A stretch of DNA of 64,000 nt from an uncultured Acidobacteriota bacterium (GTDB taxonomy: Bacteria; Acidobacteriota; Thermoanaerobaculia; Multivoradales; JAHEKO01), in assembly GCA_963713825.1 (NCBI GenBank), contig CAVQNG010000001.1:32001-96000 (forward strand). Direction: 5' to 3'. The notes beneath the pieces were generated by a model that was not told where the DNA came from, searched no databases, and saw only the letters and a program-made list of their open reading frames with translations. Each line of letters begins with the position of its first letter. The first letter of the stretch is position 1. This document shows positions 3,308-30,916 of the stretch, one piece after another. Position numbers and translations under genes: made by a program.

Positions 3308-4165
3308 CTATCTGTGCGGTCGGGCCTGAACGTGGGGTGGGGAGGGGTAAAGCTGGAGGCTGGTGTCAGTCTGGGCAATGCGGACAGCCGGGTAGATGCG
3401 AAGGACATCTGTGAGGTGAGTCAGGGCCTTGCGCCGGAAGTCTCGCCGGCGGGAATAGTCGGCTCCGAACTGGGCCTCGAGACTCTCCCAGGGAATCGAC
3501 GTCGGCTTTCTTAGATAGCTCATCCGGTAGGTAAGCCACACGTAGAGGTCGATTGCCAGGGGTGAGCCGCGCAAGCGGCGGATCGCTCGCAGATCCACGG
3601 GGACCGCGGAACGGGTGATCTCCCGGAAGAAGTGACGGTCGAGAACCACCCTGGGATCCCAAGTCGATCGACGCAGGAGAAGGCTTGAGGCGAGTGCTTG
3701 CAAGGACGGATTGGATGTGGATACGAAGCGTTGACTTCGGGCCCCGGTGCAAGTGTCCTCATATGATCGCCAACTCCATCGTGTCGATAGGAGCCGGCGG
3801 AGCTGATCCTCCAGTCGACGTGCGGTGCCACGCGGTCCGCTGATCGTCGACAGACCCAGCTTTCGTGCTAAGTCATTGGGCGTAGCGCCGGGATGAATCT
3901 CGGGGTTCTTGGTTCGAACCGCTTCAGTGGTCAGGTAGACGAGAAGCAGCCGCGGATAAGAGCCGTAGGGTAGGCCGACACGCCGAGGTGCCCGCAGTCG
4001 GAGCGTGTGGCGACCGTTCACCCGCTTGAACCGGTGGCTCTGTGGCCGGCGATGGGGGAGGGTGGTGAGGACCAGGAGGCGCGGCATGAAGCCGAGTGCA
4101 CCCGCGGTCAGGGCGTCCTCGGACTCCAGAGACGAGAGATTCTCCGCTGGGCTCACGAGAGCCAT
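3308..4165 (-). CDS. repA: Plasmid-type replication initiator RepA (RepA_C / IncW-like), copy 1
   Basis: GFMPR..LP.R.P, R.NG, GLPYGSYPRL..TTEAVRT, PVDLRA..L..SPLAIDLYVWLTYR, PWESLEAQFGADY motifs. ATG 4165 is conserved across the three copies. Confidence 0.85.
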   Translation of the reverse strand: MALVSPAENLSSLESEDALTAGALGFMPRLLVLTTLPHRRPQSHRFKRVNGRHTLRLRAPRRVGLPYGSYPRLLLVYLTTEAVRTKNPEIHPGATPNDLARKLGLSTISGPRGTARRLEDQLRRLLSTRWSWRSYEDTCTGARSQRFVSTSNPSLQALASSLLLRRSTWDPRVVLDRHFFREITRSAVPVDLRAIRRLRGSPLAIDLYVWLTYRMSYLRKPTSIPWESLEAQFGADYSRRRDFRRKALTHLTDVLRIYPAVRIAQTDTSLQLYPSPPHVQARPHR

Positions 4166-4510
4166 CAACGACAGCACCTGACAACAGAGAGGTAACAATT
4201 TTGGTAACAATGAAGGACAACAGATGCCCGTAATCGACAGCAGACGGCAATTACGCCTGTCGGCGTAAGTCGCGTGTTTTGTTGCGGTTGCGTGCTGTCA
4301 TCTGTTGTGGAGTGTGAGTTTTCAAAGGACTTAAAATCCCCCAGCCGAAAGGCTATCCGGGTTCAAATCCCGGCTCCGGCACCAAGTTAACTTACACAAA
4401 TAGATGGACTTACGGAGCTTCGGGATATCTTCGTCCGGGCGCTCTTTGGGGCAGTGGTAACAATTTTGGTAACACTGAACCACAACAGATGGCCGCAGTC
4501 GACAGCAGGG
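4160..4510. repeat. att-like junction 1 (repeat / tRNA-Leu 3' half / repeat)
   Basis: GGTAACAATTTTGGTAACA at 4191-4209 and 4456-4474; TTACGCC-TGTC-GGCGTAA palindrome at 4251-4268; homologous to 33290-33635 and 44795-44965. Confidence 0.85.
4327..4384 (+). tRNA. tRNA-Leu(UAA) 3' fragment (att core, not an intact tRNA)
   Basis: GGA-CTTAAAA-TCC anticodon loop, long variable arm AGCC-GAAA-GGCT, T-arm CCGGG-TTCAAAT-CCCGG, CTCCGGC-A-CCA end. No D-arm or 5' acceptor strand (GCCGGAG) upstream. Confidence 0.85.
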
Positions 4511-4636
4511 TGCATCGCATCTGCATTCAGGGCCTGGGGACCGGTTGTGGTCGAGCAGCACAGCGTTCGGTGATCAGCGGGGCGGACCGGGGCGTCGTTG
4601 AGAAGCACTCGCGCGGTCAGGTAGGCTTGCTGCATC

Positions 4637-7414
4637 GTGGAGCACGACACGACCCTCCTGCGCACCAAACTGCACCGGCCGACAGTGGCCGGCGACCTGG
4701 TGGATCGCCTGCGGCTGGACGAGCTGATGGACTCTGCTTTGGAAGTGCCACTGACCCTGGTCTCGGCGCCGGCAGGGTACGGCAAGAGCATGCTCGTCAG
4801 TCACTGGTCCGAGTCGCAGGAGATGGCTCACACCTGGGTATCTCTCGACGAGGCGGACAGCGACCTGTCGGTTTTTCTGAGCTACCTGCTGGCCGCGGTG
4901 AGGAAGATCCTTCCTGAAGCCTGCCCAGAAACGGAAGCCCTGCTCCGCGCCCCCAATCTGCCACCGCTGAATGTGCTGGCCAGCATTCTCACCAACGAAC
5001 TGGACGCGATTGAAAACCCGTTTGTTCTGACTCTGGACGACTATCACGGCATCGAGCCGGCCTCCGAGGTGCACGACCTGCTCAGGCTTGTCCTGGAGCA
5101 TCCTCCGCAGCCCCTCCACCTGGTGCTGGTGACCCGGCGAGACCCGCCCCTGCCGATCGCGTCGATGCGCGCTTTGCGTCAGGTGAACGAAGTGCGGCTT
5201 CAGGATCTTCGGTTCAACGACCGGGAGACTTCGGACTTCCTTGTCGCCACCGCCGGCCTCGAGATCAGTGACGATTCCCTGGCCAACCTGCAGCGGCAGA
5301 TCGAAGGTTGGGCTGTGGGCTTGAGCCTGGTCTCACAGTACCTACGCCATCACGAGGATCCCGAGGAGTTCTTGAAGAGCTTGAGCGGCGGCATTCAACT
5401 CACCCAGCAGTACCTCGTGCAAGAGGTCATCGCGGGACGCTCGCCCTTGATGCAGGAGTGGTTGTTGAGGACGTCGATCCTCGACCGGTTCTGCCCTGCC
5501 CTGTGCGATGCGGTGTGCGCTGGTGAAGGGGAGTCTGGAAGCGATGATCTCGATGGCGATCAGTTCATTGAAGCGCTGCTGCGGGTCAACCTCTTCGCTA
5601 TCTCCCTGGACAGTCGGGGGAAGTGGTTTCGGTATCACCATCTCTTTCGGGAGTCGCTCGAGAAAGAGCTGCAGCGCCGCCTGGAACCGGGCGAGATCTC
5701 CGCACTCCACCTGCGAGCCAGCGAGTGGCTGGAGTCCCGTGGGCTGATCACCGAGTCGATCGAGCATGCCCTGAGAGGCGAAGACGTCGAGAGCGCAGCC
5801 GACCTGATCGAACGGCATCGGCATCGGGAAGTGAATGCAGATCGCTGGTATGTCGTCGGCAAGTGGATGGCGAGGCTACCGCCAGAGATCAAGCAAGAGA
5901 GGCCCGGACTCCTTTTGGCGCAGGCATGGATTGCCTTTTGGCGATTCGAGCTTCCGAGACTCCCCCCGCTCCTCGACCAAGCGGCTCGGGTCCTAGGCGA
6001 CGTTTCGGTGGAGCCGGAACTTGCGGGAGAGCTGGATTTCCACCGCGGCAACCTGGCGTATTGGGACGGTGACTGCGAAGGTGCCGTGAAACCTCTGGAG
6101 CAGGCGCTGGAGAAGACCAGGGGAATCGGCGGCATCGTCGCGGGCAACGTCGAGATCATGCTCGGCCTGGCCCGCTGCATGAGTGGCCGACGCGAAGTGG
6201 CAATCGAGGCTCTCAACGACCGGATTCGGACGGTTGATGCCCAAGACGTGATGCTCCTCTCTCACCTGATCGCCACTCTCGTCTATATCCATATCGCGTC
6301 TGGCGATCTGGCCTCGGCCCGTCTCGCTGCGGATCAACTGCGGTCGATCTCGAAGAGAGCACCGATGCACAACACCGCCGCCTGGGGTCACTACTTCGTG
6401 GCGTGTACGTGCTTGCACTCACTCGAGCTGGGCCGGGCAGCCCAGGGCTTCGCCGACTCGGTTCAGCGCCCATATGTCTTCGAGCCACGAGCGGCTGTCG
6501 ATGCTTTCACGGGTCTTGCGCTCGCGCAACAGCTGGCCGGAGAGGACGGGCAAACTGAGAAGACCATGGCGCGCCTTTTCAGTTTCGTTCAGGCAATGAA
6601 CTCTCCTGACTACTTGATCATGGCCCATGCCTGTCGTGCCCGACTGTCCGTTCTGCAGGGCGATGTGAGGTCCGCTATCGAGTTGACAGGCTCCCTCGGC
6701 GAGGATTCCGCTCTGCCAGACCTGTTCACCTGGCTCGAGATCCCTGCGATCACCCATGCGAGGGTCCTGATCGCGGCGGGGTCCAAGCAGGGCCTGACCC
6801 GGGCAAACGAGTTGCTCCAGACCATCCGCGAACGAAGTGAGACCTGGCGGCTCAGGTGCCAGACGATCGAAGTAACGGTACTTCTGTCCTTGGCCCTGGA
6901 AAAGCGAGGACTTGCCACAGAGGCCGTCGAAGCTCTCCAAGAGGCGGTAGAGCTGGCGCGGCCAGGGGGCTGGGTGCGGCCCTTCGTCGAGGCTGGCCCC
7001 ACGATGGCCGAGATGCTCGAGCGTCTGGACGAGCAGGAGGAATCTGCTGGATTCGTCCAGCGAGTGTTGACGGCCTTCGCTGCAACCGGCGCTCCTGCGC
7101 CGCCGCCGGCCCCGCTCGAGGAGCCGAGTGCTACTGCAACTGCTGCTGCGGCCCCTGCCCCGACCCCGAAGGCTCTCGACGATTTGACCGATCGCGAGCT
7201 CGACGTGCTCGAGCTGCTGGCGCAGCGCCTGCAAAACAAGGAGATCGCCGCTCAGCTCTGCATCTCCACCCATACGGTGAACTATCACCTCAAGCACATC
7301 TACGACAAACTCGGTGTCCAGAGCCGCCGCCAGGCTGTCGAGCAAGCCGTGGAGCGTGGGATCCTCGATCGATCTCGGCTCTGGGGCAAACCGTCCGCGC
7401 CGCGCCGCCAGTGA
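4637..7414 (+). CDS. MalT-like large ATP-binding LuxR (LAL) transcriptional regulator
   Basis: LLRTKLHRP start, P-loop [31 protein letters not shown]-terminal LuxR HTH ([11 protein letters not shown]...[19 protein letters not shown]). Confidence 0.93.
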
Positions 7415-7448
7415 GACGGTACCTGCCGTAGGCGCTGGGCGGAGTCAA

Positions 7449-7516
7449 CCCCCTTATTTCCCCCCCATTTCCCCCACACTCCTGGGGATGCGGGCCTACC
7501 GCGGAGTGCTTAGGCT
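7449..7516 (+). promoter_or_regulatory. Conserved C-rich activator box/promoter, copy 1
   Basis: CCCTTATTTCCCCCCCATTTCCCCC...GGGGATGCG-N18-TAGGCT. Confidence 0.7.
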
Positions 7517-7526
7517 AGGGGTGGCC

Positions 7527-8594
7527 GTGAAGACGACTGCCAGATCGAGGTATCTTGCGACGCTGATGATGGCCTCGAGCTTCATCGGTTGTGTCGCGCA
7601 CACCAGCTCACCACCCGCCTCCATGCCACCAGAGTCTCTCGAGCTCCGCGAGCCGTCTGCTACTCAGCTCTTCTCCTACGAGCGCCGAGAGATTCCGTTC
7701 AAGAATCGGATGCTGGACAAAGAAGAGACGTCGCTCTATCGCGTGCGCTACGTCCGCTTTCCCTCGATCGGTGACAACGGTCAACCGGGCAATCTCGTAA
7801 GGGGCAAGTACTACGAAAGCAAGTTGCAGGGTCGGAAGCCCATGGTCGTGGTGCTGCCTATCTGGGGTCGGCATGTCTATCCACCCGAAAAGATCACCGC
7901 TCATTTGCGGCGACGCAGCCGCGGCCACGTCAATGTCTTTCAGATGGAGGGTCCGAATCACCTTCTCGATTGGCAGGGCCTGGCCTCCGCCCCAGATGAG
8001 GCGTCCTATCTGGATCTCTGGAAGCAGGGCGCGCAACGTGAGTGGGTGGCGATCACCGATATTCGCCGCATCCTCGATTGGGCGAAAACCAGGCCGGACT
8101 TGGACTCCGAACGCATCGGTCTGGTGGGCTTCAGTCATGGAGCCATGGTGGCCGGGGCCGTGGCGGCGCAGGAGCCCCGATTAGCTGCGACCGTTCTGGT
8201 CATGGGTGGTGCGCTGGCCCACCAGGTGCTGGCGCAGTGCCCGCTGACCCGTAGCGCCCCGGCCAGATCGAAGGCCGTGACCGAGTTTGGATGGAGCCCG
8301 GACGAGCTCGAGCAGCGGCTCCAGCCGATCTTCGCGCCCCTGGATCCGGCAAGCTATCCGGGAAGGGTCGATCCGCAACGGGTGCTGATCGTCGAGGCGG
8401 CGCAGGATCAGTGCATGACCGAGACCGCCCGTGAGGCACTCTGGGAGTCGATGGGTCAACCGGAGCGGATACTCATTCCGACTCGGCACAAGCGGGCCTT
8501 TCTGGGAATGACACCGCTGGGATTCAACTGGCTCCGTCACCGGATTGGCGACTTCCTGCTGCGAACCTTGGAGCTGCCAGGGGAGATCCCCTAG
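7527..8594 (+). CDS. Alpha/beta hydrolase, probable lipoprotein
   Basis: GFSHG nucleophile elbow after D.ERIGLV; FIGC lipobox-like. GTG start chosen downstream of the promoter motif. Confidence 0.75.
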   Translation: MKTTARSRYLATLMMASSFIGCVAHTSSPPASMPPESLELREPSATQLFSYERREIPFKNRMLDKEETSLYRVRYVRFPSIGDNGQPGNLVRGKYYESKLQGRKPMVVVLPIWGRHVYPPEKITAHLRRRSRGHVNVFQMEGPNHLLDWQGLASAPDEASYLDLWKQGAQREWVAITDIRRILDWAKTRPDLDSERIGLVGFSHGAMVAGAVAAQEPRLAATVLVMGGALAHQVLAQCPLTRSAPARSKAVTEFGWSPDELEQRLQPIFAPLDPASYPGRVDPQRVLIVEAAQDQCMTETAREALWESMGQPERILIPTRHKRAFLGMTPLGFNWLRHRIGDFLLRTLELPGEIP

Positions 8595-8605
8595 GATTCT
8601 GCGAC

Positions 8606-8672
8606 TCCCTTAATTCCCCCTCGATTCCCCCTTATTCCGAGGGATTCGGGGCCTGCCGGGGACACACAGAAT
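8606..8672 (+). promoter_or_regulatory. Conserved C-rich activator box/promoter, copy 2
   Basis: CCCTTAATTCCCCCTCGATTCCCCCTTATTCCGAGGGATTCG-N18-CAGAAT. Confidence 0.75.
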
Positions 8673-8698
8673 GTAGCTGTGGCCCACGGAGGTGTGAG

Positions 8699-9670
8699 AT
8701 GAAGTTCGAAAGGTCGCTTTTCGCCAGCGTAATCGGCTGCTGCCTGGCTATCGCCTTGCTAGCCAGCCCGACCGAGGCCCAGTTCCTGGGTCACAACTTC
8801 ACCGGTGACATGGGTCTGATGTCCGGCACCCAAGGGCCACCCGGTTGGAATGTGGCGGCAGTGTATCTGCGCTACGACGGCGAGACCCTGCGTGGCCCTG
8901 ACGGGGAGTCGATCGCGATCGACCCTGACGAGCAGGGCTCGTTGGATGCCAACGCCTATGCGGTCGCCATCACCTGGGTTGCCGAGAAGAAGATCCTGGG
9001 CGGCAACTACAGCTTCGGGATCTTTCCCGCCTTCACCGACAACAGGTTCGAAGTGCCGATTCTCAGTCTGGATGAGAAGGTCGATACGGGCTTTACAGAT
9101 ATCTACATCCAGCCCATCAACCTCGGTTGGCACAAGGAGCGCGCCGACTACATCGCGGGTGTGGGGATCTATGCCCCCACGGGCAGCTACGACGTCAGCG
9201 CCGACGACAATCTCGGATTGGGAATGTGGAGCTTCGAGCTCTTCGGTGGGACCACGGTCTATCTCGACAAGGCCAAGAGCTGGCACTTCGCCACCTCGGC
9301 CTTCTACGAGATGCACTCCGAGAAGAAGGACACCGACATCAGAGTCGGCGACATCCTCACCCTCGAGGGCGGCCTGGGCAAGTCCTGGATGCAAGGTGCG
9401 CTGACCTTCGGGATCGCGTACTTCGCCCAGTGGAAGGTCACCGAGGACCGGGCCGGAGAGCTGCAGCCCATTCTCGACGAGCTCCAGCTCGGCAGACACC
9501 GGGGCTACGGTTTCGGACCGGAGCTGACCGTGCCGATCGCCACAAGCAAGAAGCTGATCGGCTTTATCAACGCTCGCTTCCTGTGGGAAACGGGCATCCG
9601 CAGCCAGCTGGAGGGAACTGTCTTCACCCTGGCCGCCTCGTTCCCGATACCGAGCATCGCGCTGCAATGA
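8699..9670 (+). CDS. SphA / MetA-pathway-of-phenol-degradation family outer-membrane channel
   Basis: Signal peptide; ..D.Y.QP..LGWH, APTGSYD...N.G motifs; amphipathic beta strands. Confidence 0.8.
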   Translation: MKFERSLFASVIGCCLAIALLASPTEAQFLGHNFTGDMGLMSGTQGPPGWNVAAVYLRYDGETLRGPDGESIAIDPDEQGSLDANAYAVAITWVAEKKILGGNYSFGIFPAFTDNRFEVPILSLDEKVDTGFTDIYIQPINLGWHKERADYIAGVGIYAPTGSYDVSADDNLGLGMWSFELFGGTTVYLDKAKSWHFATSAFYEMHSEKKDTDIRVGDILTLEGGLGKSWMQGALTFGIAYFAQWKVTEDRAGELQPILDELQLGRHRGYGFGPELTVPIATSKKLIGFINARFLWETGIRSQLEGTVFTLAASFPIPSIALQ

Positions 9671-9709
9671 GACCCCAGTTGGGTCTGAACATCAAGAAAG
9701 GACTATGAA

Positions 9710-10057
9710 ATGGGACTTTTTGGAGACGACAAGAGGCAGGACGAACAGATTGCGGCCCTGGAAGAGCATATCCGCATCCTGACCGAGACGGTTCAGGCCA
9801 ATCAGGTGGATCTCATTGAGGGCCGGATCGTTCTGCTGGCGCTGCAGGCGCAAATTAATGAGAAGGTGTCGGCAGCAGATGTCGACCCGACGATTGTTCA
9901 GCTCAACGAGGAGCTGACGACCGCACGGGATCAGCTCGAAGAGGCCACGGCCGCCGCCTCGGAGAGCTGGGCGACCCTGCAGCAGGGGGTCCGTGACGCG
10001 TTCGAGACGCTGCGTACCAGCGTTCGTCAGGCGGCGGAGAGGGTCAAGCAGAGCTGA
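9710..10057 (+). CDS. Hypothetical coiled-coil protein
   Basis: 115-aa ORF with AAGGA RBS and heptad-rich sequence. Confidence 0.65.
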   Translation: MGLFGDDKRQDEQIAALEEHIRILTETVQANQVDLIEGRIVLLALQAQINEKVSAADVDPTIVQLNEELTTARDQLEEATAAASESWATLQQGVRDAFETLRTSVRQAAERVKQS

Positions 10058-10114
10058 CGCAGGCAGCACTCCTGACTCGACGTACAACCCAGAGGGTGTC
10101 GTAAGGAGGCCCCA

Positions 10115-10474
10115 ATGCCAGATCTGGAAGACCAAGCACTCGAGGTAGATTCGTCACAGGACCGTGCCGAGACAGAACCCTCGGGTATTGCTTTGCCGAG
10201 CTTGCAGTCCATAAGCTGGTCGCTCATCGCTGGCGGTGCCCTGGGTGCCCTCGCCAACCTGCTGACCGGCCGGCGCAGACTGATGGACTGGATTGTGCCC
10301 GTGAGTCTCCTCGGCCTCGGAGCCGGCGTGCTGCTCCAACAGCGTCAGACCCGATTGGAAGCTACTCAGCAGACCATCATCGCCGAGCTCGACGCCTTGG
10401 ACCCGATCGCCCGAGCTCAGGTGTTGCAAGCGGTCGCCAAGGAGCAGCTCGGCTGGGATTCCGACGACGACTAG
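10115..10474 (+). CDS. Hypothetical small membrane protein
   Basis: AGGAGG RBS; two hydrophobic segments. Confidence 0.65.
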   Translation: MPDLEDQALEVDSSQDRAETEPSGIALPSLQSISWSLIAGGALGALANLLTGRRRLMDWIVPVSLLGLGAGVLLQQRQTRLEATQQTIIAELDALDPIARAQVLQAVAKEQLGWDSDDD

Positions 10475-10508
10475 GGCGTGTCCTGGTCGGCGAGCTCGAC
10501 GCCAAGTC

Positions 10509-11459
10509 GTGCACCGAGTAGTCATCGACCTGGCTCTCTTCCGCATGGACGGAGATTCGATTGTGCGGCTTTCTTGGCAGGTTCTGAAACCATCTGTAGC
10601 CAGATTCAATGCCGCGGATGCGCCAACTCACTCGGCCGCATTGTCGTACTCGATGATCTTCTCTCTCCCGCCCATGCTGTTCATCATCCTCTGGGCCGCT
10701 AGCTTTTTCTCCGACGAGAGGCTCGTGCGAGAGGCAGTCTTTTCCGAGTTTGGAGGGCTGGTCGGTGAGGAGGGAGCAAGCCAGGTGATGGCAACGTTGG
10801 AAAGGATCGAGTTTCGTCGGCCTGGTTGGTGGGCTACCGCTGTCGCTGCGATTACCATGCTGTTGACCGCCTCCACGGTAATGGTCTCCGGGCAGAAGGC
10901 GCTCAACCGCATCTTCAGAGTTGAGTCTGATCAGCCAGCGAATCTGGGCCTCTGGCGATTCGTTCGTGACAGGGTGGTGTCCTTCGCGATGTTGGTGACG
11001 CTCGCCTTCATCCTGTCGGTCTCGTTGATACTCGGGACACTCGTCAACCATTTGGGGACATGGCTGGGGAACTGTATCGGGCCGCTGTCGGGCTGGGTGA
11101 CGGCCCTTGACTCGGCCCTGCTGGATCTCGGTGCCATGACGCTGCTGTTCGCAATGCTGTTCCGCTATCTGCCCGACATTCAGCTGCCCTGGAAAGAGAC
11201 CTGGTTGGGAGCCCTGCTGACGGCGGCCCTTTTCGCGGTCGGCAAGTCCCTGATCGGTCTGCTTATCGGCCGCAGCGAGATTGCCAGCCTGTACGACGCC
11301 GCAGGCAGCGTTCTTGTGCTCATGCTGTGGGTGTACTACGCTGCGGCCATCTTCCTCTTCGGAGCCAGCATCACCGCGGTCCGCGCCGAGATGTCGGAGA
11401 CGGCGGCAGGAGCCGTCAAAGCAGAATTCAGTGCCGGAATCAGGGCAGGAGGAGAGTAG
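10509..11459 (+). CDS. YihY/virulence factor BrkB family membrane protein
   Basis: AALSYSMIFSL.P, ALNRI, Y..AGS....LWVYY.A.I.L.GA motifs. Start may be ATG 10545. Confidence 0.88.
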   Translation: MHRVVIDLALFRMDGDSIVRLSWQVLKPSVARFNAADAPTHSAALSYSMIFSLPPMLFIILWAASFFSDERLVREAVFSEFGGLVGEEGASQVMATLERIEFRRPGWWATAVAAITMLLTASTVMVSGQKALNRIFRVESDQPANLGLWRFVRDRVVSFAMLVTLAFILSVSLILGTLVNHLGTWLGNCIGPLSGWVTALDSALLDLGAMTLLFAMLFRYLPDIQLPWKETWLGALLTAALFAVGKSLIGLLIGRSEIASLYDAAGSVLVLMLWVYYAAAIFLFGASITAVRAEMSETAAGAVKAEFSAGIRAGGE

Positions 11460-11488
11460 CCCAGCATGACGACCAGGAGGAAACGGCC

Positions 11489-11674
11489 ATGACACACGTT
11501 CGTATCATTCTCAACGGTAAAGGGGCCGCCAACCCTCAGGTTCGCGCGGCCATTGAGCGGATTCGAGAACAGGGGCAGACGCTCGAGGTGCGGGCCACCT
11601 GGGAAGGCGGCGACGCCGCCCGGTATGCGCAGAAGGCGCTGCACGATGGTGTGGGAGGTTCAAAGGCACAATGA
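11489..11674 (+). pseudogene. yegS: Truncated YegS lipid kinase (N-terminal ~55 aa only)
   Basis: RIILNGK...REQGQTLEVRATWEGGDAARY matches the YegS N-terminus; stops before the GGGDGT motif. Confidence 0.75.
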
Positions 11675-12264
11675 AGACGACGGCGACCTCGCGACCGTCC
11701 TTGGGTAGCCTGCTCAAACGATACAGGTGGCTGTATCTGCTGGGCTGGCTGTTTCTGGCCTTGATCGCGCTGCTCGCGCAGTGGCTGGGCCCGGCGCTAT
11801 TCGAGCAGCTGCGTTGGCTCGTGGATCAAGTGGCGCCGTCTGCGTCCCTGGGGTGGAAGATCGCGCTGGCTGTTGTCGCTTTGATGGTCGCTCCCATGGC
11901 GGCTGGCATCGTCGCCCAGTTCCTGCTGGGTTACCTCAAAGGGCGAAGCAGCTCGAATGCGCTCCTGCAGATGCAGGAGAAGCTGTTCGCCGAGATCGAA
12001 CCGGGCGACGAGCGCGGCTATCAGGTGGCCTTGCTCGCCTGGCCCAACCCTCAGGTTCGAACCCTGGCGCTGGTGACCGCCACGTTCGAAGAGTCGGCCA
12101 CTGGCCGTCAACTCGCCGCCGTCTATCTCCCCGGCACACCGGACCCGACCAAGGGCTCGATCAAGGTCGTCGCGCTGGACGACCTTACTCTCATCGGTTG
12201 GACCCTGGACGACGTCACCTCGTTCCACCTCACCTTCGGCTCGGTCAGCCCCGGAAGCTGCTGA
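11671..12264 (+). CDS. DUF502-like membrane protein, copy 1
   Basis: Two TM helices plus AVYLPGTPDPTKGS motif; paralogue of 20123-20710. Confidence 0.7.
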   Translation: MKTTATSRPSLGSLLKRYRWLYLLGWLFLALIALLAQWLGPALFEQLRWLVDQVAPSASLGWKIALAVVALMVAPMAAGIVAQFLLGYLKGRSSSNALLQMQEKLFAEIEPGDERGYQVALLAWPNPQVRTLALVTATFEESATGRQLAAVYLPGTPDPTKGSIKVVALDDLTLIGWTLDDVTSFHLTFGSVSPGSC

Positions 12265-12273
12265 GGCTCCCTC

Positions 12274-14727
12274 ATGAACGTCCAACGACTCGCGACAAAC
12301 TGCACCATCGGCGGCTGTCTGGCTGTCGCGCTATTGGCGGCGATAGCGGGGACGCCGGTCGCGGCCCAGAGCGAGCCCGAAATCGCGACGCTGCCACCCG
12401 ATTCGGCTGCCGGGCCGAGCCCGATCCCGGATGTCGACATCAGTGCCCGGTCCGCCTTGGCACGGGAGCTGGAACGGGGCGCCGAGTCGAAGATCACGCC
12501 GGATGAGCGCCTGACCCAGATCGAGCAGGCCTTGCCAGTCGAGCAGCAGCGCATCGCCGCGCTGGTAGGGCAGACCGACGAGCTCCTCGAGACCGCCGGG
12601 AGCACGTCGCTGATCCGGGAGACCGAAAAGGCCTCGGTGCGGTCCCGAGACCGTCTCGACCGCTGGATGCGGGACCTCTCGGCGCGCACGAATGCCCGGG
12701 CATCGACGCTCGAGGAGCTGCAGGAGGAACGGTCGGTCTGGGAGCTGACGCGGGACCTCGAGCGCGAGGACCCGCTGCCCGAAGCGCTGGAGAACGAGAT
12801 CACGGAGGTCATCGATCTCCTTCGGGCCGGCGAAACCCGCGCCCGCACGGCAAGAGATTCGGTGCTCGCGCTGCAAGCCAGTATCGCGCGGCAGCAGAGC
12901 GTGCTCGAGGAGATCCTAACGCGTCAGCGAGAAGAGGTCTCGCGGCGCACAACGGCGATCTTCGAGGTCGACAGCCCTCCGTTGTGGAAGGTGCTGCGCG
13001 CCCCTGCCGAGCGGGGAGGGGTTGTCGATCAGGTCCGGATTCTCGTGCAGCGGCAGTGGCAGGACCTGCGCGGCTACGTCGCCGAGGAGGGAGCCCGCCT
13101 GTCTGCCTGGTTGTTTCTCTGGGTTGCCCTGGCGGCCTTGCTGATCTCTTTGCGCCACCGGTCGAAGGCGTGGGTGCAGAAGGATCCGTCGCTGGATCGA
13201 GCGGTCTCCTTGCTCGATCGGCCGATTGCCGCAGCGGCGGTGCTGATTCTGGCCCTGACCAACATCGTCGACATCCAGGCACCCACGGCTTGGTTGGACG
13301 TGCTCAACCTGGTACTGGTGTTGGCCCTGCTGTTCTTGCTCCTCGGGGTGTTGGACAAGTCCCTGCACCGCATGCTGTATCTCCTGATCCCGCTCTACTT
13401 CTTCTTCCAACTGGTCAATCTGGCGCCGGTCGCATCCCTCGTCCACCGCCTGGCCATCCTGGCCTTGGGCCTCGTCGGGGTCGTGTACTGCGTCTGGTTC
13501 TTGCGGGTCTTGCGCGCAGACCCCGATCGGTTACCACCGGCCTGGCAGCGAGCTCTGGAGCGCGGGATGCGCCTGGCGATCTTGCTCTACGCCGCGGGAA
13601 TGATCGCCAACGTTCTCGGTAGCGTTCGCCTGGGAGCCTTGGCCGTCGTGGGAACCACCGATGCGGTCTTCACCGGGATTATCCTCTGGGTCGTCAGCGC
13701 GCTCTTGCGATCCATTGTCCGCGTCACCCTCGTCACCAAGAGCGCACATCGTCTCGGCATCGCCCCTGAGCACACGGATGCGGTGCGCGACCAGCTGTTT
13801 CGCCTGATCAGCCTGGTCGCCGTGATCGTCTTCGGTGTCTTTGCTCTCAGAGGCTTCACGCTCTACGAGCCGGTGGCAGACAGGGTCAGGAGCATCCTGG
13901 GCGCCGAGCTCTCCATCGGTGAGTTCTCGCTCAGCTTGGGGGCTGTCCTGACCTTCGTCCTCATCATCTGGCTGTCGGCCAAGCTTGCGGCGCTGGTGGA
14001 ATTCGTGCTCGGCAAGCTCCTCCTGCCACGGACGCGGTTGTCGCAGGGAGCAGCGCATGCTGTCTCTCGGGTCAGCCGCTACACCGTGATCTTCTTCGGC
14101 TTGCTGGTGGCCATCAAGGCCCTCGGCTTCGATATCAGTCAGGCGGCGATCGTGGCGGGCGGTCTCGGGGTCGGCATCGGCTTCGGCCTCCAAAACGTGG
14201 TCAGCAACTTCGTCTCCGGCCTGATCCTGCTCTTCGAGCGGCCGATCCGGGTGGGCGACATCATCGAGGTGGGGACGACGAGCGGCCAAGTGATAGAGAT
14301 CGGCATGCGGGCCACTGTGGTCAGTACCTGGAGGGGCTCGGAGCTGATCGTCCCCAACTCCAAGCTCATCGCTTCGGATGTCGACAACTGGACCTTGCAT
14401 CACGATCGGCGACGGCTCGAGATCCCGGTCGGGGTCGCGTACGGCACCGATCCGGAGGTCGTGGCGAAGCTGCTCGTAGATATAGCAGCGCGTCACCCCA
14501 GGATCGACGCCTTCCCCGAGCCGCAATGTCTTTTCCTGGGATTCGGCGAGAGCTCGCTGGATTTCCAGCTACGCGCCTGGGCAGAGGCAGGCGAATACTT
14601 CGGGATCGAGAGCGAGCTGCGGTTCACCATTACCCGAGCTCTGGACGAAGCCGGCATCACGATCCCCTTCCCGCAACGCGACCTGCACCTCCATCCCGCG
14701 GGCGGGCAGCTGCCGGCCGATTCCTGA
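12274..14727 (+). CDS. Large MscS-family mechanosensitive channel (MscK/MscM-like)
   Basis: Periplasmic coiled coil, many TMs, GIGFGLQNVVSNFVSGLILLFERPIRVGD, IVPNS, IPFPQRDLHL. Confidence 0.92.
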   Translation: MNVQRLATNCTIGGCLAVALLAAIAGTPVAAQSEPEIATLPPDSAAGPSPIPDVDISARSALARELERGAESKITPDERLTQIEQALPVEQQRIAALVGQTDELLETAGSTSLIRETEKASVRSRDRLDRWMRDLSARTNARASTLEELQEERSVWELTRDLEREDPLPEALENEITEVIDLLRAGETRARTARDSVLALQASIARQQSVLEEILTRQREEVSRRTTAIFEVDSPPLWKVLRAPAERGGVVDQVRILVQRQWQDLRGYVAEEGARLSAWLFLWVALAALLISLRHRSKAWVQKDPSLDRAVSLLDRPIAAAAVLILALTNIVDIQAPTAWLDVLNLVLVLALLFLLLGVLDKSLHRMLYLLIPLYFFFQLVNLAPVASLVHRLAILALGLVGVVYCVWFLRVLRADPDRLPPAWQRALERGMRLAILLYAAGMIANVLGSVRLGALAVVGTTDAVFTGIILWVVSALLRSIVRVTLVTKSAHRLGIAPEHTDAVRDQLFRLISLVAVIVFGVFALRGFTLYEPVADRVRSILGAELSIGEFSLSLGAVLTFVLIIWLSAKLAALVEFVLGKLLLPRTRLSQGAAHAVSRVSRYTVIFFGLLVAIKALGFDISQAAIVAGGLGVGIGFGLQNVVSNFVSGLILLFERPIRVGDIIEVGTTSGQVIEIGMRATVVSTWRGSELIVPNSKLIASDVDNWTLHHDRRRLEIPVGVAYGTDPEVVAKLLVDIAARHPRIDAFPEPQCLFLGFGESSLDFQLRAWAEAGEYFGIESELRFTITRALDEAGITIPFPQRDLHLHPAGGQLPADS

Positions 14728-14744
14728 CCCGACCCGGATCCGAA

Positions 14745-14812
14745 CCCCCTCATTTCCCCCTCGATTCCCACTTGTTTCAAGGGATTCGTAGTGATCTGCG
14801 GTGCATCAGCAT
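14745..14812 (+). promoter_or_regulatory. Conserved C-rich activator box/promoter, copy 3
   Basis: CCCCTCATTTCCCCCTCGATTCCCACTTGTTTCAAGGGATTCG-N18-CAGCAT. Confidence 0.75.
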
Positions 14813-14877
14813 AAATAGCACTGCGAATCTCATCTGGCGGAGTCAAGCGCCCAGACAGGACCGTAAGGAGGACGATC

Positions 14878-16479
14878 ATGGATGAGTATCGAAGCAAGAC
14901 GTGGCGGCAGGTCACCTGGATTGCGGGTGTATGGGTGCTGGTGGCCGCGAGTCTGATCGCCGTCGGCTGTGCACCTCAGGGGTCGCCTGAAGGTGAAACC
15001 ACTGCAGCGGCAGCGGCCGAGCCGGCGCCACCGACCCAGATGAAGATGACCACGGCAATTCCGGAATCGATCACCACTCCGGACAGGGTGGAAACCTCCA
15101 TCGGGACCTTCGAGTTCTTCGATGGCGTGCCCACCAAGAAGAGCACGGAAATGGCCTATGACTTTTTGGACAAGGTCAATGCCTACAAGGCACTTCTCAG
15201 CACCATTCCCACCGTTTCCATCAACGAGCTGCGCCGGGGCCAGGCGGCGGTCGGTGCGAAGACCAGCAACCAGATCTGCATCTACGACACGCTGATGGAT
15301 TCGAAGTCGCTCGTCCTGACCGGGAACACCTCCACCATGTATGCGCTGGGCTTCCTCGACCTGGAGAAGGACGGCCCCACGGTGATCGAGCTGCCGCCCG
15401 GCATGCTCGGCGTGCTCAACGACATGGGCTTCCTGCACATGACGGACCTCGGTGCGGCCGGCCCCGACAAGGGCAAGGGCGGCAAATACCTGGTGCTGCC
15501 TCCCGGCTACGAGGGTGACGTGCCCAAAGGCTATTTCGTCGTGCAGTCCAAGACCTACAACGTCTGGAACTTCATGCGCGGCTACCTGGACAAAGGCGTG
15601 AAAGCGGCGTCCGACAATATCCGCAACAACCTCAAGGTCTATCCACTGAGCCGCGCCGCGGATCAGCCGACCATGGAGTTCATCAATGTCTCCGGCAAAG
15701 AGATGAACACCGTTCTCCCGACGGATTACACCTTCTTTGAGCGCATCAACGAGGTGGTCCAGAAAGAGCCGGAAGGCTTTCTCGACCTCGAGGTCCTCGG
15801 CCTGTTGCGGTCCATCGGCATCGTCAAGGGTCAGCCCTTCAATCCGGATGCCCGCATGAAGGCAATCCTGACCGATGCGGCAGCCATCGCAGAGGCCACG
15901 GCGCGGACCATCACTTACTACCCGCGCGTGGCCGGTCAATACGCCTGGGGCGACATGGAAGGGGCCTGGGTCGTACCGTTTGCCGATAATGATTCCACCT
16001 GGATCGAAAACAGCGCCCGGAAGATCGAGAACCAGATCTACTACCACTACAACTGCATCGTGGTGACGCCGGCGATGGCCGCGGCTCCGGATCCTGGCAA
16101 GGGCTCCGAGTACGTATTTGCCTCGCTGGACACGGAGAAGAAGATCCTGGAGGGCTCCAAGAGCTACAAGATGACCCTGCCCGCGAATGTCCCCGTTGCG
16201 GACTTCTGGGCAATCACCCTCTACGACACGCAGACGCGCTCGCAGCTGCAGACCGACCAGCAGTTTCCGACGCTGGACACCTACACCGAAGGGTTGCAGA
16301 AGAACGAGGACGGCTCGTACACCATCTATTTCGGGCCCGAGGCACCCGCGGGCCAGGAAAGCAACTGGCTTCAGACCATTCCCGGCAAGAGCTGGTTCAT
16401 TGCCCTGCGTATCTATGGACCCGAACAGCCCTGGATCGAAGGCGCATGGCGGCCGAGCGACGTCGAGCTGGTCGCATAA
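14878..16479 (+). CDS. DUF1254/DUF1214 lipoprotein, paralogue 1
   Basis: LT.NT.T.Y..GFLDL..GP.VIE.P, GPDKGKGGKYL.LPP, DFWAITLYD, N.DGS..IYFGP, NW..T.PG; lipobox AVGC. Confidence 0.9.
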   Translation: MDEYRSKTWRQVTWIAGVWVLVAASLIAVGCAPQGSPEGETTAAAAAEPAPPTQMKMTTAIPESITTPDRVETSIGTFEFFDGVPTKKSTEMAYDFLDKVNAYKALLSTIPTVSINELRRGQAAVGAKTSNQICIYDTLMDSKSLVLTGNTSTMYALGFLDLEKDGPTVIELPPGMLGVLNDMGFLHMTDLGAAGPDKGKGGKYLVLPPGYEGDVPKGYFVVQSKTYNVWNFMRGYLDKGVKAASDNIRNNLKVYPLSRAADQPTMEFINVSGKEMNTVLPTDYTFFERINEVVQKEPEGFLDLEVLGLLRSIGIVKGQPFNPDARMKAILTDAAAIAEATARTITYYPRVAGQYAWGDMEGAWVVPFADNDSTWIENSARKIENQIYYHYNCIVVTPAMAAAPDPGKGSEYVFASLDTEKKILEGSKSYKMTLPANVPVADFWAITLYDTQTRSQLQTDQQFPTLDTYTEGLQKNEDGSYTIYFGPEAPAGQESNWLQTIPGKSWFIALRIYGPEQPWIEGAWRPSDVELVA

Positions 16480-16493
16480 GAACCCAGGACGTT

Positions 16494-16522
16494 TAGAGGG
16501 CGGGGTTTATCCCCGCCCTCTA
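16494..16522. repeat. REP-like GC-rich palindrome
   Basis: TAGAGGGCGGGG-TTTAT-CCCCGCCCTCTA; reads GTAG-foot on the minus strand. Confidence 0.55.
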
Positions 16523-16652
16523 CAACGACCCGAGAATGAGAGATGAAATACAACGAAGTCACTGAGAACCGCCCTGGCCGTATTGACGGCCTTCTGCTTG
16601 ATCGGCGCCGCATCGCCGAGCCCGAGAGCTGATCTGAAAGGAACCGTTGTCG

Positions 16653-17491
16653 ATGAAAATCACATCACCCATCAAGGTTGTCTTGGCCGGGCTGGTAGCG
16701 GCCGGGCTGGCGCTTCCGGTCCAGGCGCAGGAGGACAACACCGGCACCAACCCGGTCAACTTCACCTACGACTTCCGGCTGTATGCCGAGATGGCGAGCC
16801 TGCCGATCGACGACAGCTCGCTGATCACCAACACCGTCGAGCTCCGCTGGCCCTTCGGCCGCGACGTCGCCAACCTCAAGGGGGTGGGAGCCGGCAGCTT
16901 GTACCACGACCTGGGCAGTCGGTTCGGGACGCGCGTCCGGGCACGCTACTCGAACCTCAGCGTCGACGTGCCGGGTTCGAATACGTACACGCGTCTCGGG
17001 GATCGGCGATATGGATGCGCGGCTTCTGTACCTGCCGTACATCGGCAAGAAGACGATCCTCGCGGTCGGTCTCGAGGGCTTCTTCGCCACCGCTACCAAC
17101 GACGCCCTCGGGTCCGGCAGGACCTCGCTCGGACCGACCGTGATCGGGGTCTTTCCCGGTCTGGTTGGCCGCGGGAAGCCTTTTCGCGCCCGCCTACCAG
17201 TACGTGTTCGACGTCGGCGGCTCGAGCGATCGCGCCGACATCAGCCGCAGCCAGCTCGACCTCTACTTCGTGTGGACGCTTGCCGGCGGCAAGAACTGGC
17301 TGATCGTCGATCCGCAGGTCATCTTCGACCACGAGAACGACAGGACACCGGCGCTGACAGAGATCGAGTGGGGCTTCATGATCGCGCCCAAGGTCGGCAT
17401 CAGTGGCTGGCTGCGCCCAGGGGCCGGGATCGGCGCAGACCGGCTCTACGACTGGAACCTCGAGGCGGGCATCAAGTTCGTCTGGCGGTGA
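16653..17491 (+). pseudogene. Exported beta-barrel-like protein interrupted by two +1 frameshifts (~17000, ~17175)
   Basis: Signal peptide and DNTGTNP in frame 16647, continues in 17011 (DARLLYLPY...ALGSG) then 17165 (FAPAYQY...AGIKFVWR). Confidence 0.65.
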
Positions 17492-17716
17492 GGAAGCGAA
17501 GGGTCAACGAATCAAGAGTTGGAGGTAGAGATGAAGCAGTCGCTCGAGGAGCACCCGCACCCACCCGGGGTTTCCTTGACGGAAACCGGGCCATAGAGGC
17601 GACGATGACCCTTGATTCGCAATCGGTGCGCAGGCTGAATGTTCCGCCGGCCTTGTCCGACCCGGAATACTCGGCCTACTCGTTGAGAAAAGATTGAAAG
17701 GAGAAGGAGAGATACT

Positions 17717-19194
17717 ATGAAAAACAAAATTACCAACCGAACCCTGCTGGCAGGACTGCTGGCAATCGCGCTGATATCTTCCGCTGGTGCGGCCGATAAG
17801 CCCAATGTAGTAATTATGCTGTCAGACAACATGGGATACGGTGACTTAGGCAGCTACGGCAGCGGCGGTGAGCTTCGGGGCATGCCGACGCCACGCATCG
17901 ACCAGCTGGCAAGCGAAGGGCTCATGCTCACTCAGTTTTTCGTGGAGCCGGGCTGTACACCGACCCGCGCGGCTTTGCTGACAGGCAGATATTCTCAACG
18001 TGCAGGATTGGGAAGCATTATTATTGCCGGTACACCCAGCACACTTCAGGATAGTGAGGTGACGCTTGCCGAACTGTTCAAATCAAAAGACTACGCCACT
18101 GCCATTGTGGGTAAATGGCATCTGGGTGAAGAAAAGCAAAGCCTGCCCATTCACCAGGGCTTTGATGAATACCATGTTGGGATTTTACAAACCACCGACG
18201 GTACATTGTATCCGGATGGTATGCGTAGAAGCGGTATACCGGAGGCAGAAATTGCCAAATCGCAATGCCTCTATCTGGGAATCAGAACCCGGAAAGGATG
18301 TGTTGAAAAAGGTCCGTCCCTACGATCTTGAATACAGGCGGCATATCGAAGGTGACATAGCGCAAGCCTCCGTGAAGTACATCAAAGAACAGGCAAAAGA
18401 AAAGAAACCATTCTTTCTTTATGTGGGATGGTCACATGTGCATTATCCGGCCTTGCCTCATCCCGACTTTGAAGGGAAATCGAGTGCCGGGCTTTTTGGT
18501 GATGCTGTGATGGAACTTGACTACCGTACAGGACAGGTGCTTGACGCCATAAAGGAGGCCGGCATTGAAGACAACACCATCGTTATATGGCTTTCCGACA
18601 ATGGGCCGGCTACAACCCAGGGGTCCAACAACGATTTCCTGGGCAGTTCACCCGGACCGTTCCGTGGAGAGGTTGGTGATGCACTTGAGGGGTCACTGCG
18701 CGTTCCGGGAATGATCAAATGGCCAGAAAAGATCAAACCGGCGAAGAGCAACGAGATGGTAGCTATCCACGACTTTTACCCTACATTGGCCAATATTATC
18801 GGGGCTAAAGTACCAACTGACCGTGCCATTGATGGCGTCGATCAGGGTGATTTCTTCCTAGGCAAAAACAAGCAGTCAGCGCGCGAAAGCCTGATCACGT
18901 TCATGGAAGGCGAGGTTGCTGCAGTGCGCTGGAAGCAGTGGCGGATTTATCCAAAGCAATTCATTTCATCTGCTGGCAACCCGTCCCTCATGGGCGTGGG
19001 CGGCTATCGTGCCGAGGGGATGGGTTATCCTTCTATTTATAATATTGCCCGTGATCCACGGGAACAATGGAACCAGAGTTGCAGTCTCTGCCTTTGTGCT
19101 CGGACCGTATATGAAGATTGTGGGCGAATACCAGAAGTCACTGGAAAAATATCCCAATCCACCAGCCTTCAGCATGACAAAATTTGCGAAGTAA
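17717..19194 (+). pseudogene. Arylsulfatase split by two +1 frameshifts (~18265, ~19075)
   Basis: CTPTRAALLTGR and GKWHLG in ORF 17717; PFFLY, SDNG, EGSLRVP in ORF 18066; C-terminus in ORF 18916-19194. More A/T-rich than its flanks. Confidence 0.85.
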
Positions 19195-19323
19195 CGAGGG
19201 CAAGAAAGCATTGCATGCTGCGCCGGGGATTATCCTTGGCGCAGCATACATGACTAAAAAAGAAAATTGGAGTCTTAATAATGTCAAACATCCTCAAGGC
19301 GATGGGGCAGGAACGGGCTCATA

Positions 19324-20074
19324 CGATCCCGATGAACGCGGCTCCCTGGACGCCAATGCGTACGCGATTGCCATCACGTGGGTGGCCGAGAAGACCCTCC
19401 TGGGCGGCAACTACGGCTTCGGGATCTTCCCCGCCTTCACCGACAACAAGTTCGAGGTCCCCATTCTCACCCTCCAGGAAAAGGTCGATACCGGCCTCAC
19501 CGATGTGTACATCCAGCCCATCACCCTTGGTTGGCACAAGAAGCGCGCCGACTACATCGCCGGCCTCGGAATCTACGCCCCCACTGGCAGGTACGCCCCG
19601 GACGCCGACGACAACCTCGGCATGGGGATGTGGAGCTTCGAGCTCTTTGGAGGCACCACGCTCTACTTCGACGACGCCAAGAGTTGGCACTTCGCCACCA
19701 CCGCCTTCTACGAGACCCACACTGACAAGGAGGACACGGACCTCAGGGTTGGAGACATCCTGACCCTCGAAGGCGGCCTCGGCAAATCCTGGATGCAGGG
19801 CGCGTTGACCGCGGGCATCGCCTACTTCGCGCAGTGGAAGGTCACCGACGACCAGGCGGGCGAGCTCCAGCCGATTTTCGATGAGCTTCAACTCGGCAGG
19901 CATCGCGGCTACGGCATCGGACCGGAGGTCACCATCCCCATCGCCACCAAGAAGAAGTTGATCGGCTTCATCAACGCTCGATTTCTCTGGGAGAATGGGA
20001 TCCGCAGCCAACTGGAGGGGACCGTCTTCACTCTCGCCGCATCGTTCCCGATCCCCAGTATCGCGCTACAGTAG
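19324..20074 (+). pseudogene. 5'-truncated SphA-family channel, close paralogue of 8699-9670
   Basis: From DPDERGSLDANAY to FPIPSIALQ it closely matches the first copy; lacks the signal peptide and ~70 N-terminal aa. Confidence 0.75.
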
Positions 20075-20122
20075 AGGAAAGCGGTCTCTCACCCCAATGA
20101 CCAAGACGGACCGGAGTGCCTA

Positions 20123-20710
20123 ATGGGAAAGAAGCTTCAACGTCGCTCACCAGAGGAAAGGCGCAAGCGAATCCAGTGGCTCTACCTGCTCGGCTGGATC
20201 TTTCTGGCTGTAATTGGACTCATAGTCAATTGGGTGGGCGTACAGCTATTCGAGCAACTGGACTGGCTCGTGCAGTGGCTGGTGCCGTCTGGGTCCTTGG
20301 CGTGGAAGATCGCAGTGGGTGTGATCCTCCTCATCGCAGTGCCTCTGGCGGCCGGCACGTTCGCGCAGTTCCTCATGGAGTTCTTCCATGGGCGGCGCAA
20401 CGTGGACGCGCTGATGCAGATGCAGCAGAAGCTCTTCGCGGAGTTGGAGCCCGGCGATCAGGGGTATCGGGTGGCACTGGTCGACACTCCCAATGCGAGT
20501 GTGAGGTCTCTGGCGGTCGTCACCGGTACCTTTGAGGAATCCGAGACGGGCCGCGAACTGGCCGCCATCTTTCTTCCCAACACCCCAGATCCGACAAAAG
20601 GCTCGATGCGAGTCGTGCCAGTGGAGGATCTTTCCTTCACCGGCTGGACGGTGGACGACCTCACCACCTTCCATCTCACCTTCGGATCGGTCAGTCCAAG
20701 AACCTGCTGA
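20123..20710 (+). CDS. DUF502-like membrane protein, copy 2
   Basis: WLYLLGW, AIFLPNTPDPTKGS and FHLTFGSVSP shared with 11671-12264. Confidence 0.7.
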   Translation: MGKKLQRRSPEERRKRIQWLYLLGWIFLAVIGLIVNWVGVQLFEQLDWLVQWLVPSGSLAWKIAVGVILLIAVPLAAGTFAQFLMEFFHGRRNVDALMQMQQKLFAELEPGDQGYRVALVDTPNASVRSLAVVTGTFEESETGRELAAIFLPNTPDPTKGSMRVVPVEDLSFTGWTVDDLTTFHLTFGSVSPRTC

Positions 20711-20805
20711 GATCTGCGCTCGGCACTCTGCGTGGCCTTGCTCTGCAGTCAGGAGAGTCGTAGAATGACTCATTGTGAGTCACTAATGACTCGAGCGATG
20801 AACGG

Positions 20806-21527: not shown

Positions 21528-21529
21528 GC

Positions 21530-21597: not shown

Positions 21598-21622
21598 GAC
21601 GGTGCACAAGGAGGAAGTGACG

Positions 21623-21886: not shown

Positions 21887-21927
21887 ACTGGCTTCGAAGT
21901 TCGCCTCGGCCTCAAAGGAGGAAAGTG

Positions 21928-30909: not shown

Positions 30910-30916
30910 GCGAAAT

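Follow-up and report, generated by a model that had tools for sequence, protein, structure and literature searches.

A putative hybrid attachment junction between RepA_C-bearing units stacked at tRNA-Leu(TAA) in an uncultured acidobacterium

The DNA considered here (the window) is a stretch of 64,000 nucleotides, positions 32,001 to 96,000 of contig CAVQNG010000001.1, from an uncultured bacterium of the Acidobacteriota class Thermoanaerobaculia. It carries a tandem array of units whose right ends hold a gene, or what is left of one, for a replication initiator of the RepA_C family (Rep). The subject is the junction at 4160-4510, called J1. Judged by its sequence, J1 appears to be a real hybrid attR/attL site in which the right end of one unit, A, meets the left end of the next, B, at tRNA-Leu(TAA). 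A preliminary description of the window took it for a complete attP. Its layout is indeed like that of an attP, but it is not the attP of one element, being a hybrid of two integrated units. I propose that J1 joins units stacked at tRNA-Leu(TAA) and moved by a tyrosine integrase that they share and that acts in trans, which seems to me probable. Most likely the array is part of a larger family, found chiefly in Thermoanaerobaculia, whose cassettes carry Rep, have no integrase and are serially inserted by a shared tyrosine integrase acting in trans.

The junction and its crossover site

A 289-bp block occurs three times, at 4043, 33172 and 44677, each copy running from a minus-strand RepA_C gene, of which it holds the 5' end, into a 19-mer, GGTAACA-N5-GGTAACA. 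The first two blocks (in J1 and J2) then lead to the 3' half of a tRNA and to a second 19-mer on its right; the third lies in a broken junction, J3. There are thus five exact copies of the 19-mer in the window (4191, 4456, 33320, 33583 and 44825) and no sixth, even with up to three mismatches allowed. At that stringency 0.02 matches are expected by chance, and five copies were reached in none of 100 shuffles. The 19-mer is part of a 53-bp direct repeat, identical at 47 of 53 positions within J1 and at 40 of 53 within J2.

All the motifs named in the preliminary description were found again where it had put them: the palindrome TTACGCC-N4-GGCGTAA (4251-4268, and again at 33380), TAAGTC-N6-TTTGT (4266, 33395 and 44900), its mirror ACAAA-N6-GACTTA (in the window only at 4396-4412), and a dyad at the start of the tRNA fragment (4318-4337, 5 of 7 pairs). 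Most of them are no surprise in a region of this size. Among 2000 shuffles of its 351 bp, 43 contained an inverted mirror of the form 6-N6-5, a number that rose to 219 when gaps of 3-10 were accepted; among 500, 64 held a 7-bp palindrome without mismatch. A dyad with 5 of 7 pairs arises at 3.9% of positions. An exact repeat of 19 nucleotides arose in 0 of 2000. The long repeat is therefore the sole motif of J1 that is significant by itself, and the short ones count only through their conservation. No sigma-70 promoter was found at 4100-4650.

Conservation can be judged from related loci in other genomes. GTDB was searched for exact 19-mer matches only, which gave 42 loci. Eight of these (L002, L013, L017, L019, L028, L040, L041 and L042) were chosen as family loci by similarity of arms and Rep; they come from five metagenome-assembled genomes (MAGs), four labelled Thermoanaerobaculia or Acidobacteriota and one Polyangiaceae. 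GACAGCAG, TTACGCC, TAAGTC and TTTGT show no variation among 6 of 6 left arms, 4 of which also keep the palindrome's right half intact. The exact mirror ACAAA-N6-GACTTA is present in 2 of 6 right arms, and the left half of the dyad is kept in 3 of 5. Plasmid and phage records gave no informative match to the junction.

Then there is the evidence of spacing. The left 19-mer stands 139 bp from the anticodon loop in J1, J2 and L019, and J3 aligns with them without gaps. From the CCA end to the right 19-mer the distance is 71, 71, 71, 72 and 71 bp in five junctions; L042, where the 19-mer follows an intact tRNA-Leu(TAA), has 63 bp. The 19-mer is invariant over its five copies in the window while the spacers diverge, as had been claimed: despite the fixed spacing of the arms, the 36-nt spacer averages only 51% identity. 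Pairs of 7-mers with a 12-bp period thus lie on both sides of the core, at -139 and +71/72 bp, in the layout of paired arm-type sites. Cluster J mycobacteriophages are described as having a comparable attP at tRNA-Leu, with short direct-repeat pairs on each side of the core (PMC3706429). The spacing, and the tRNAs and integrases that neighbour the 19-mer elsewhere, support the view that the 19-mers behave as arm-type pairs of an integrase, which would be the protein that binds them; no candidate integrase was found in the searches described below.

The same cannot be said of the sites that the preliminary description called IHF-like, after integration host factor (IHF). The IHF consensus used for the scan was WATCAANNNNTTR. 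The accessory motifs of J1 and J2 differ from it at more than two positions. At the equivalent positions there are no mismatches in L040, which has another family of arm, one in L042, and two in L017 and L019, against a window background of 0.9 two-mismatch sites per 400 bp. The motifs are conserved sites at plausible positions, no more, and the label is positional only.

The tRNA fragment tells its own story. The 3' halves in J1, J2, L017, L019 and L041, set against the 5' half in L042, pair at 7 of 7 positions of the acceptor stem and 5 of 5 of the anticodon stem. They differ from one another in the variable arm, and each variable arm still folds. Halves that differ yet each complete the stems are what one expects of restoring fragments carried on attP, and such a fragment is described as a signature of tRNA islands (PMC4383910). 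ARAGORN found no whole tRNA in the window, and an Rfam scan of the window did not report the fragments.

Where would the crossover fall? Identity with the intact tRNA begins at GA-CTTAAAA-TC in J1, J2, L017, L019 and L041, and in L040 with one change. The dyad proposed earlier as the core, GTTTTCA-AAGGAC-TTAAAAT, pairs at 5 of 7 positions in J1, J2 and L017, at 3 of 7 in L019, and at 1 of 7 in both L041 and L040; it is rejected on the last three. In the intact tRNA the dyad scores 2 of 7 while symmetry centred on the loop scores 6 of 7. Because identity starts at the loop and the dyad is poorly paired in three relatives, the core is taken to be the 7-nt anticodon loop, and the crossover would lie at 4330-4336. 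The anticodon loop is one of the standard crossover sites of tRNA islands, according to the same source (PMC4383910).

Two observations bear on an alternative in which recombination takes place at the 53-bp direct repeats themselves, with the tRNA fragment as a passenger. In L013 and L028, the left flank on the rep side meets the downstream flank of the right side across a single 19-mer, with the core missing; the flanks of L028 are 93% and 95% identical to the two sides of J1. This is what recombination between the repeats would leave, but deletion between repeats spaced 265 bp apart, or collapse in assembly, explains it. The tRNA halves, moreover, are functionally constrained, and other families of arm (L040, L041) meet the same loop at the same base. 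I find the alternative hardly credible.

The collapsed repeats themselves lie at 2889-2907 of L013 and 10001-10019 of L028, and either real deletion or assembly collapse may have produced them. The two other left-arm families (L040:5560-5750 and L041:9700-9880) have different tandem repeats at the same tRNA-Leu loop, and they too lie near RepA_C remnants. L041 is on the contig labelled Polyangiaceae, from another phylum, yet its right arm and tRNA half share 87% identity with those of J1, which may reflect transfer across phyla or mis-binning.

Outside the family there are 34 loci with the 19-mer, of which 15 are cyanobacterial and were set aside as one recurring position, leaving 19. A tRNA T-arm lies within 250 bp of the 19-mer at 7 of the 19, compared with 33 of 7153 control positions. 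At four (L014, L025, L037 and L039; open reading frames, ORFs, were scanned at 14 of the 19) an ORF of the Phage_integrase family lies 65-203 bp away. Altogether 9 of these 19 unrelated, non-cyanobacterial loci have a tRNA end or a tyrosine integrase beside the 19-mer. The tie between the 19-mer and integrases or tRNAs, on which the preliminary description had staked its reading, is thus seen elsewhere.

The four betaproteobacterial MAG loci among them (L007, L021, L024 and L034) each carry the 19-mer some 42 bp beyond the 3' end of a tRNA-Ser gene, a different gene in every case. Scanning of ORFs close by revealed no integrase; they are possibly another integrase-poor family of islands. The 15 cyanobacterial loci (e.g. 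L001, L003, L016, L032) have the exact 19-mer and no tRNA nearby. In the 4 of 15 checked, it lies downstream of a DUF3641 radical-SAM gene.

A replication initiator beside the left arm

The start codon of the first RepA_C gene is 26 bp from the left 19-mer, and the palindrome is about 90 bp upstream of that codon. Rep is about 42% identical to plasmid RepAs over 94% of its length. Its predicted structure (pLDDT 80.5) matches the folds of RctB (Z 11.7, root-mean-square deviation 5.4 over 231 aligned residues), of pi (Z 11.5, 3.8 over 206) and of RepE, initiators with two winged helices, while a sequence search of solved structures gave no match. The ratio of nonsynonymous to synonymous substitution (dN/dS) is 0.23-0.33. 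There are matches to Rep in 1092 plasmid records, all below 60% identity, and in one phage record. A separate listing of relatives has at least 120 at 58-100% identity, the query itself first.

The link between rep and arm goes well beyond the window. Eight homologues among those 120 have over-long predicted N-termini, and six of these read through the 19-mer, so the linkage is general. The 19-mer-linked Reps are spread over the family in a tree made by a quick method (72 of 121 sequences), in which the two Reps of the window are not sisters. The gene is broken in J3, L013, L040 and L041 and lost in L017 and L028.

Such proximity invites the view that, although the tRNA core is a real att site, the 19-mers are sites for RepA (iterons or an operator) and the arms the replication origin or the control region of rep in the excised circle; the 53-bp repeats or the palindrome could be such sites as well. 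It has the short distances just given and the family-wide linkage to recommend it. The fold is that of an initiator, and RepE dimers are known to bind an operator (entry 2z9o). Nor is there another obvious origin: no iteron array was found in the window, although the method detected them in 3 of 5 plasmid controls, and downstream of either rep there is hardly any non-coding space, if any at all. But at 3 of the 5 related plasmid loci three iterons of 23-33 bp, spaced at 22 or 33 bp, lie directly downstream of rep, and none of the five has a sequence like the 19-mer or the palindrome. Two 7-mers with a 12-bp period are unlike these iterons, and I reject the idea that the 19-mer is a RepA_C iteron of the canonical kind. 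The origin of SGI1 likewise lies downstream and has DnaA boxes (PMC7433901, PMC7826253); in the junctions there is no DnaA box within one mismatch and no 40-bp stretch below 33% GC. In other taxa the 19-mer adjoins integrases without any RepA_C having been seen in the vicinity, and it is identical beside Reps only 56% identical. As an account of the 19-mer, this seems to me very improbable. The palindrome taken alone is another matter, and might possibly serve as a RepA operator, though I would lean against it.

A further argument comes from rates of divergence. Rep proteins are 55-73% identical (synonymous divergence, dS, 0.7-1.6), while the 141-bp left arms adjoining them are 78-90% identical. 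Diverged Reps beside conserved arms favour one shared binding protein over the diverging Reps as what holds the arms constant. Gene conversion or exchange of modules could also explain the high identity of the left arms.

Units that lack an integrase

If arms of this kind are bound by a tyrosine integrase, where is its gene? Pfam scans, which together cover all 249 six-frame segments of at least 170 aa, found no recombinase in the 65 ORFs of the window, in 150 of 154 short gap segments, in the 123 remaining segments, or in 105 of the 109 ORFs of the eight related loci. Units B and C and the eight loci therefore yielded no integrase gene of their own, and no relaxase family appeared among the ORFs scanned. 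No remnant of an integrase was seen beside any arm, few units having been seen end to end. Searches with tblastn and with a hidden Markov model of five 19-mer-linked integrases from other taxa, which are weak tests, recovered only their own members and one fragment. Profiles of the translated right arm, suited to catching genes with predicted ends that extend into it, gave 1 match and then 10 (seven spurious ORFs derived from arms and three chance repeats), none an integrase. A search for longer, fused forms of Rep gave three distant matches, one with a sub-threshold piece of integrase, which is weak evidence; this one, P0123, is a distant RepA_C (37%) with a fragment of tyrosine recombinase, perhaps a chimeric ORF.

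Since the units encode RepA_C and cargo and no recombinase, I propose that a shared integrase acts in trans. Each unit would circulate as a circle whose attP consists of a left arm (on the rep side), the core at the anticodon loop, a 3' half to replace that of the tRNA, and a right arm. The paired GGTAACA sites in each of the two arms would be bound by a lambda-type tyrosine integrase and the conserved motifs lying between by a directionality factor and by bending proteins of the host, with strand exchange at the 7-nt loop. A new unit would enter at the intact tRNA and displace the older ones outward, so every internal joint should have a full attP layout. Recombination of J1 with J2, if the junctions are still active, would release unit B as a circle whose attP joins the left arm of J2 to the right arm of J1. 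The integrase might be supplied by a helper phage or island, by a chromosomal gene elsewhere, or by the unseen head of the array.

The order of the array fits this scheme. From left to right there is a gradient of decay: J1 and J2 are intact, J3 is broken and accompanied by a rep stub, and after it only a 21-nt tail of tRNA remains. That damage grows rightward fits the entry of new units at an intact tRNA to the left of the window.

A more ordinary explanation is that these are decayed islands, cis-mobilizable elements (CIMEs), whose own integrases were lost after insertion and whose junctions are fossils or mobile only along with a neighbour. This course of events is described as the usual origin of tandem structures (PMC5704250), 15 islands at ssrA in Dehalococcoides are without an integration module (PMC3146451), and the frequent breakage or loss of rep speaks for decay here. 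It does not explain why the left arm abuts rep wherever rep survives, why integrase remnants were seen beside no arm, or why conservation of the arms and of rep persists in copies that have diverged. Right arms lead directly into a few recurring cargo modules (the ParE pair, the MalT-like regulator, the L017 type), and do so also in seven spurious ORFs from other genomes. A spurious ORF, P0126, reads through the 5' half of an intact tRNA, a right arm and cargo of the L017 type, which would put that right end at the newest position of an array. Another, P0127, spans a whole junction. Individual decay seems quite improbable as the general cause.

A last alternative shares the trans-acting integrase with my proposal and differs on the role of Rep. 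The units may have been born free of integrase, as a lineage-wide family of replicative cassettes of att arms, RepA_C and cargo that a single integrase shuffles at one tRNA in the manner of an integron. Rep has no separate origin, so excision, by bringing the arms together, would create the replication origin or a switch for rep; or else the directionality factor would be RepA itself. A unit would then replicate only once excised. I regard this as unlikely, though worth keeping in view.

Several things weigh against the proposal of stacking by a shared integrase. No cognate integrase was found, and an integrase could be encoded outside the window, where the array has its head and its intact tRNA. 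Only two units (B and C) are seen end to end, and the majority of the related loci either are on short contigs or stop at the arm (L002, L028, L042). The symmetry centred on the loop is only 2-4 of 7 in the junctions. Because the GTDB loci were picked by an exact match, the invariance of the 19-mer among them is circular, a circularity that spares the five copies in the window and the Rep extensions. Four of the nine supporting loci outside the family are related betaproteobacteria, though with four different tRNA-Ser genes. Finally, the proposal does not account for a RepA that is intact and under purifying selection yet has no recognisable origin.

The type of junction is already well known; the novelty lies in elements that lack an integrase but carry RepA_C. 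Tandem accretion, chimeric att sites, integrase-less CIMEs, RepA_C islands and tRNA-targeted cargo elements have all been described. The restoring 3' fragment and the loop crossover resemble a lambda-type attP at the anticodon loop (Islander site A; PMC4383910), and the repeat pairs flanking the core the attP of cluster J (PMC3706429). Unlike either, J1 is internal to an array and has no integrase gene adjacent. CIMEs and the Dehalococcoides ssrA islands share the tandem units and the chimeric internal att site, and some of their units keep attL and attR without integration genes (PMC5704250 and PMC3146451). Units B and C have the same structure: attL and attR kept (both ends of B intact, the right core of C broken), with no integration or transfer genes. 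Unlike CIMEs, described as individually decayed, they lack an integrase family-wide and hold rep fixed against the arm.

Autonomous tRNA islands, tycheposons and integrative mobilizable elements (IMEs) have an integrase of their own, which was not found in the units scanned here. IMEs of the SGI1 type come close in being chromosomal elements with RepA_C (PF04796) and toxin-antitoxin cargo, capable of tandem arrangement. SGI1 has its own int and xis, trmE as target, and an oriV of iterons and DnaA boxes downstream of rep (PMC7433901, PMC7826253), none of which were found here. Tycheposons resemble the units in their tRNA-targeted cargo, a replication module at one end, and older units pushed inward; they are defined by their own integrase, and for replication they carry primase, helicase and polymerase genes in place of RepA_C (bioRxiv 10.1101/2020.12.28.424599). 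No integrase-less family pairing att arms with RepA_C was found in the open literature, outside which most subscription papers lie, nor did a search of it find any paper naming Thermoanaerobaculia.

Such elements could be widespread without being noticed. Islander discards candidates without an integrase (PMC4383910), and would therefore miss units like B and C, as would any island finder that requires one. They seem common in the lineage, to judge by the 120 Rep relatives among the matches listed, each moving 10-30 kb of cargo. If one integrase serves all in trans, the array is a platform for cassettes anchored at a tRNA, and the attP/attB pair native to it would offer a ready means of integration in an Acidobacteriota class that is hard to work with. 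A Rep that is under selection and lacks a recognisable origin raises a testable question, whether excision is coupled to replication.

Layout and cargo of the array

Coordinates are collected in Table 1.

Table 1. Features of J1 and of the array to its right, by position in the window
Feature	Position	Strand	Basis
First RepA_C gene (replication initiator of 285 aa), at the right end of unit A	3308..4165	-	Pfam PF04796, E 4e-24; full length against plasmid RepAs; fold model
Left arm-type pair, GGTAACA-N5-GGTAACA	4191..4209	+	Offset from anticodon loop
Tail of 53-bp direct repeat, ending in GACAGCAG; candidate accessory sites for a directionality factor	4210..4243	+	GACAGCAG in all left arms compared
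Palindrome TTACGCC-N4-GGCGTAA, right half overlapping next motif; possible RepA operator or accessory site	4251..4268	.	Conservation of its halves
TAAGTC-N6-TTTGT, bending-protein-like site, 64 bp before loop	4266..4282	+	Both blocks 6/6; poor fit to IHF consensus
Inverted copies of short repeats CAACAG and GACAGCA	4283..4310	-	Inverted repeats I1, I2
tRNA-Leu(TAA) 3' half with CCA, brought by unit B	4328..4384	+	Stem pairing with L042 5' half; variable arm folds
Anticodon loop CTTAAAA, probable 7-bp crossover core	4330..4336	+	Start of identity with intact tRNA of L042 in all junctions
Unit B, 29,129 bp	4330..33458	+	Bounded at both ends; ORF and Pfam scans
Right accessory site ACAAA-N6-GACTTA; exact mirror in J1 and L041 only	4396..4412	+	Near-consensus IHF-type sites here in L042, L017, L019
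Right arm-type pair, 71 bp past CCA	4456..4474	+	Spacing in five junctions and L042
Tail of right 53-bp direct repeat	4475..4508	+	Repeat comparison
Second RepA_C gene, 307 aa, 56% identical to first	32371..33294	-	Pfam, alignment
Junction J2, anatomy as J1, different tRNA 3' half (33457-33511)	33320..33635	+	Repeat comparison
Unit C, 11,505 bp	33459..44963	+	ORF and Pfam scans
Third RepA_C gene, 45-codon 5' stub	44665..44799	-	tblastn, 69% identity
Junction J3: left arm only, degenerate palindrome, break 2 nt into anticodon loop	44825..44965	+	Repeat comparison
Last 21 nt of tRNA-Leu 3' half fused to truncated HTH_3 (HigA-like) ORF; oldest junction remnant	45829..45849	+	Sequence comparison

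Unit B carries a MalT-like LuxR regulator (4637-7414), MscS, a FitA/PIN toxin-antitoxin pair and its RepA_C. Between 14878 and 30909 lie six DUF1254/DUF1214 paralogues, three genes of the MetA pathway and a sulfatase split in two (17717-19253). In L007 the 19-mer at tRNA-Ser likewise has sulfatase and MetA-pathway genes next to it. A family of 45-nt repeats, D17, occurs between genes of unit B only (7448, 8604, 14744, 21529 and 30916, all on the plus strand). Its purine strand resembles a MalT box, and the repeats may be sites for the MalT-like regulator.

Unit C carries ParE/RHH and HepT/nucleotidyltransferase pairs, a DcaP porin, amidohydrolases, a protein with the beta-lactamase fold, a wHTH-TPR regulator and the rep stub. 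The two toxin-antitoxin modules (33576-35054) recur, rearranged, at L040:9189-10614 (92% and 81%), and the ParE module of the left end is also present in L013.

Beyond J3, at 44964-45849, is an 865-bp piece with a ParE-type pair, where the truncated HTH_3 ORF enters the tRNA tail at a short sequence shared by both, which suggests a deletion by microhomology. Further right, at 46058-46166 on the minus strand, there is a weak match to the c-di-GMP-I-GGC riboswitch, which scores 31.6 bits where the gathering score is 59, and near it a segment with a PilZ domain at 46319-46753.

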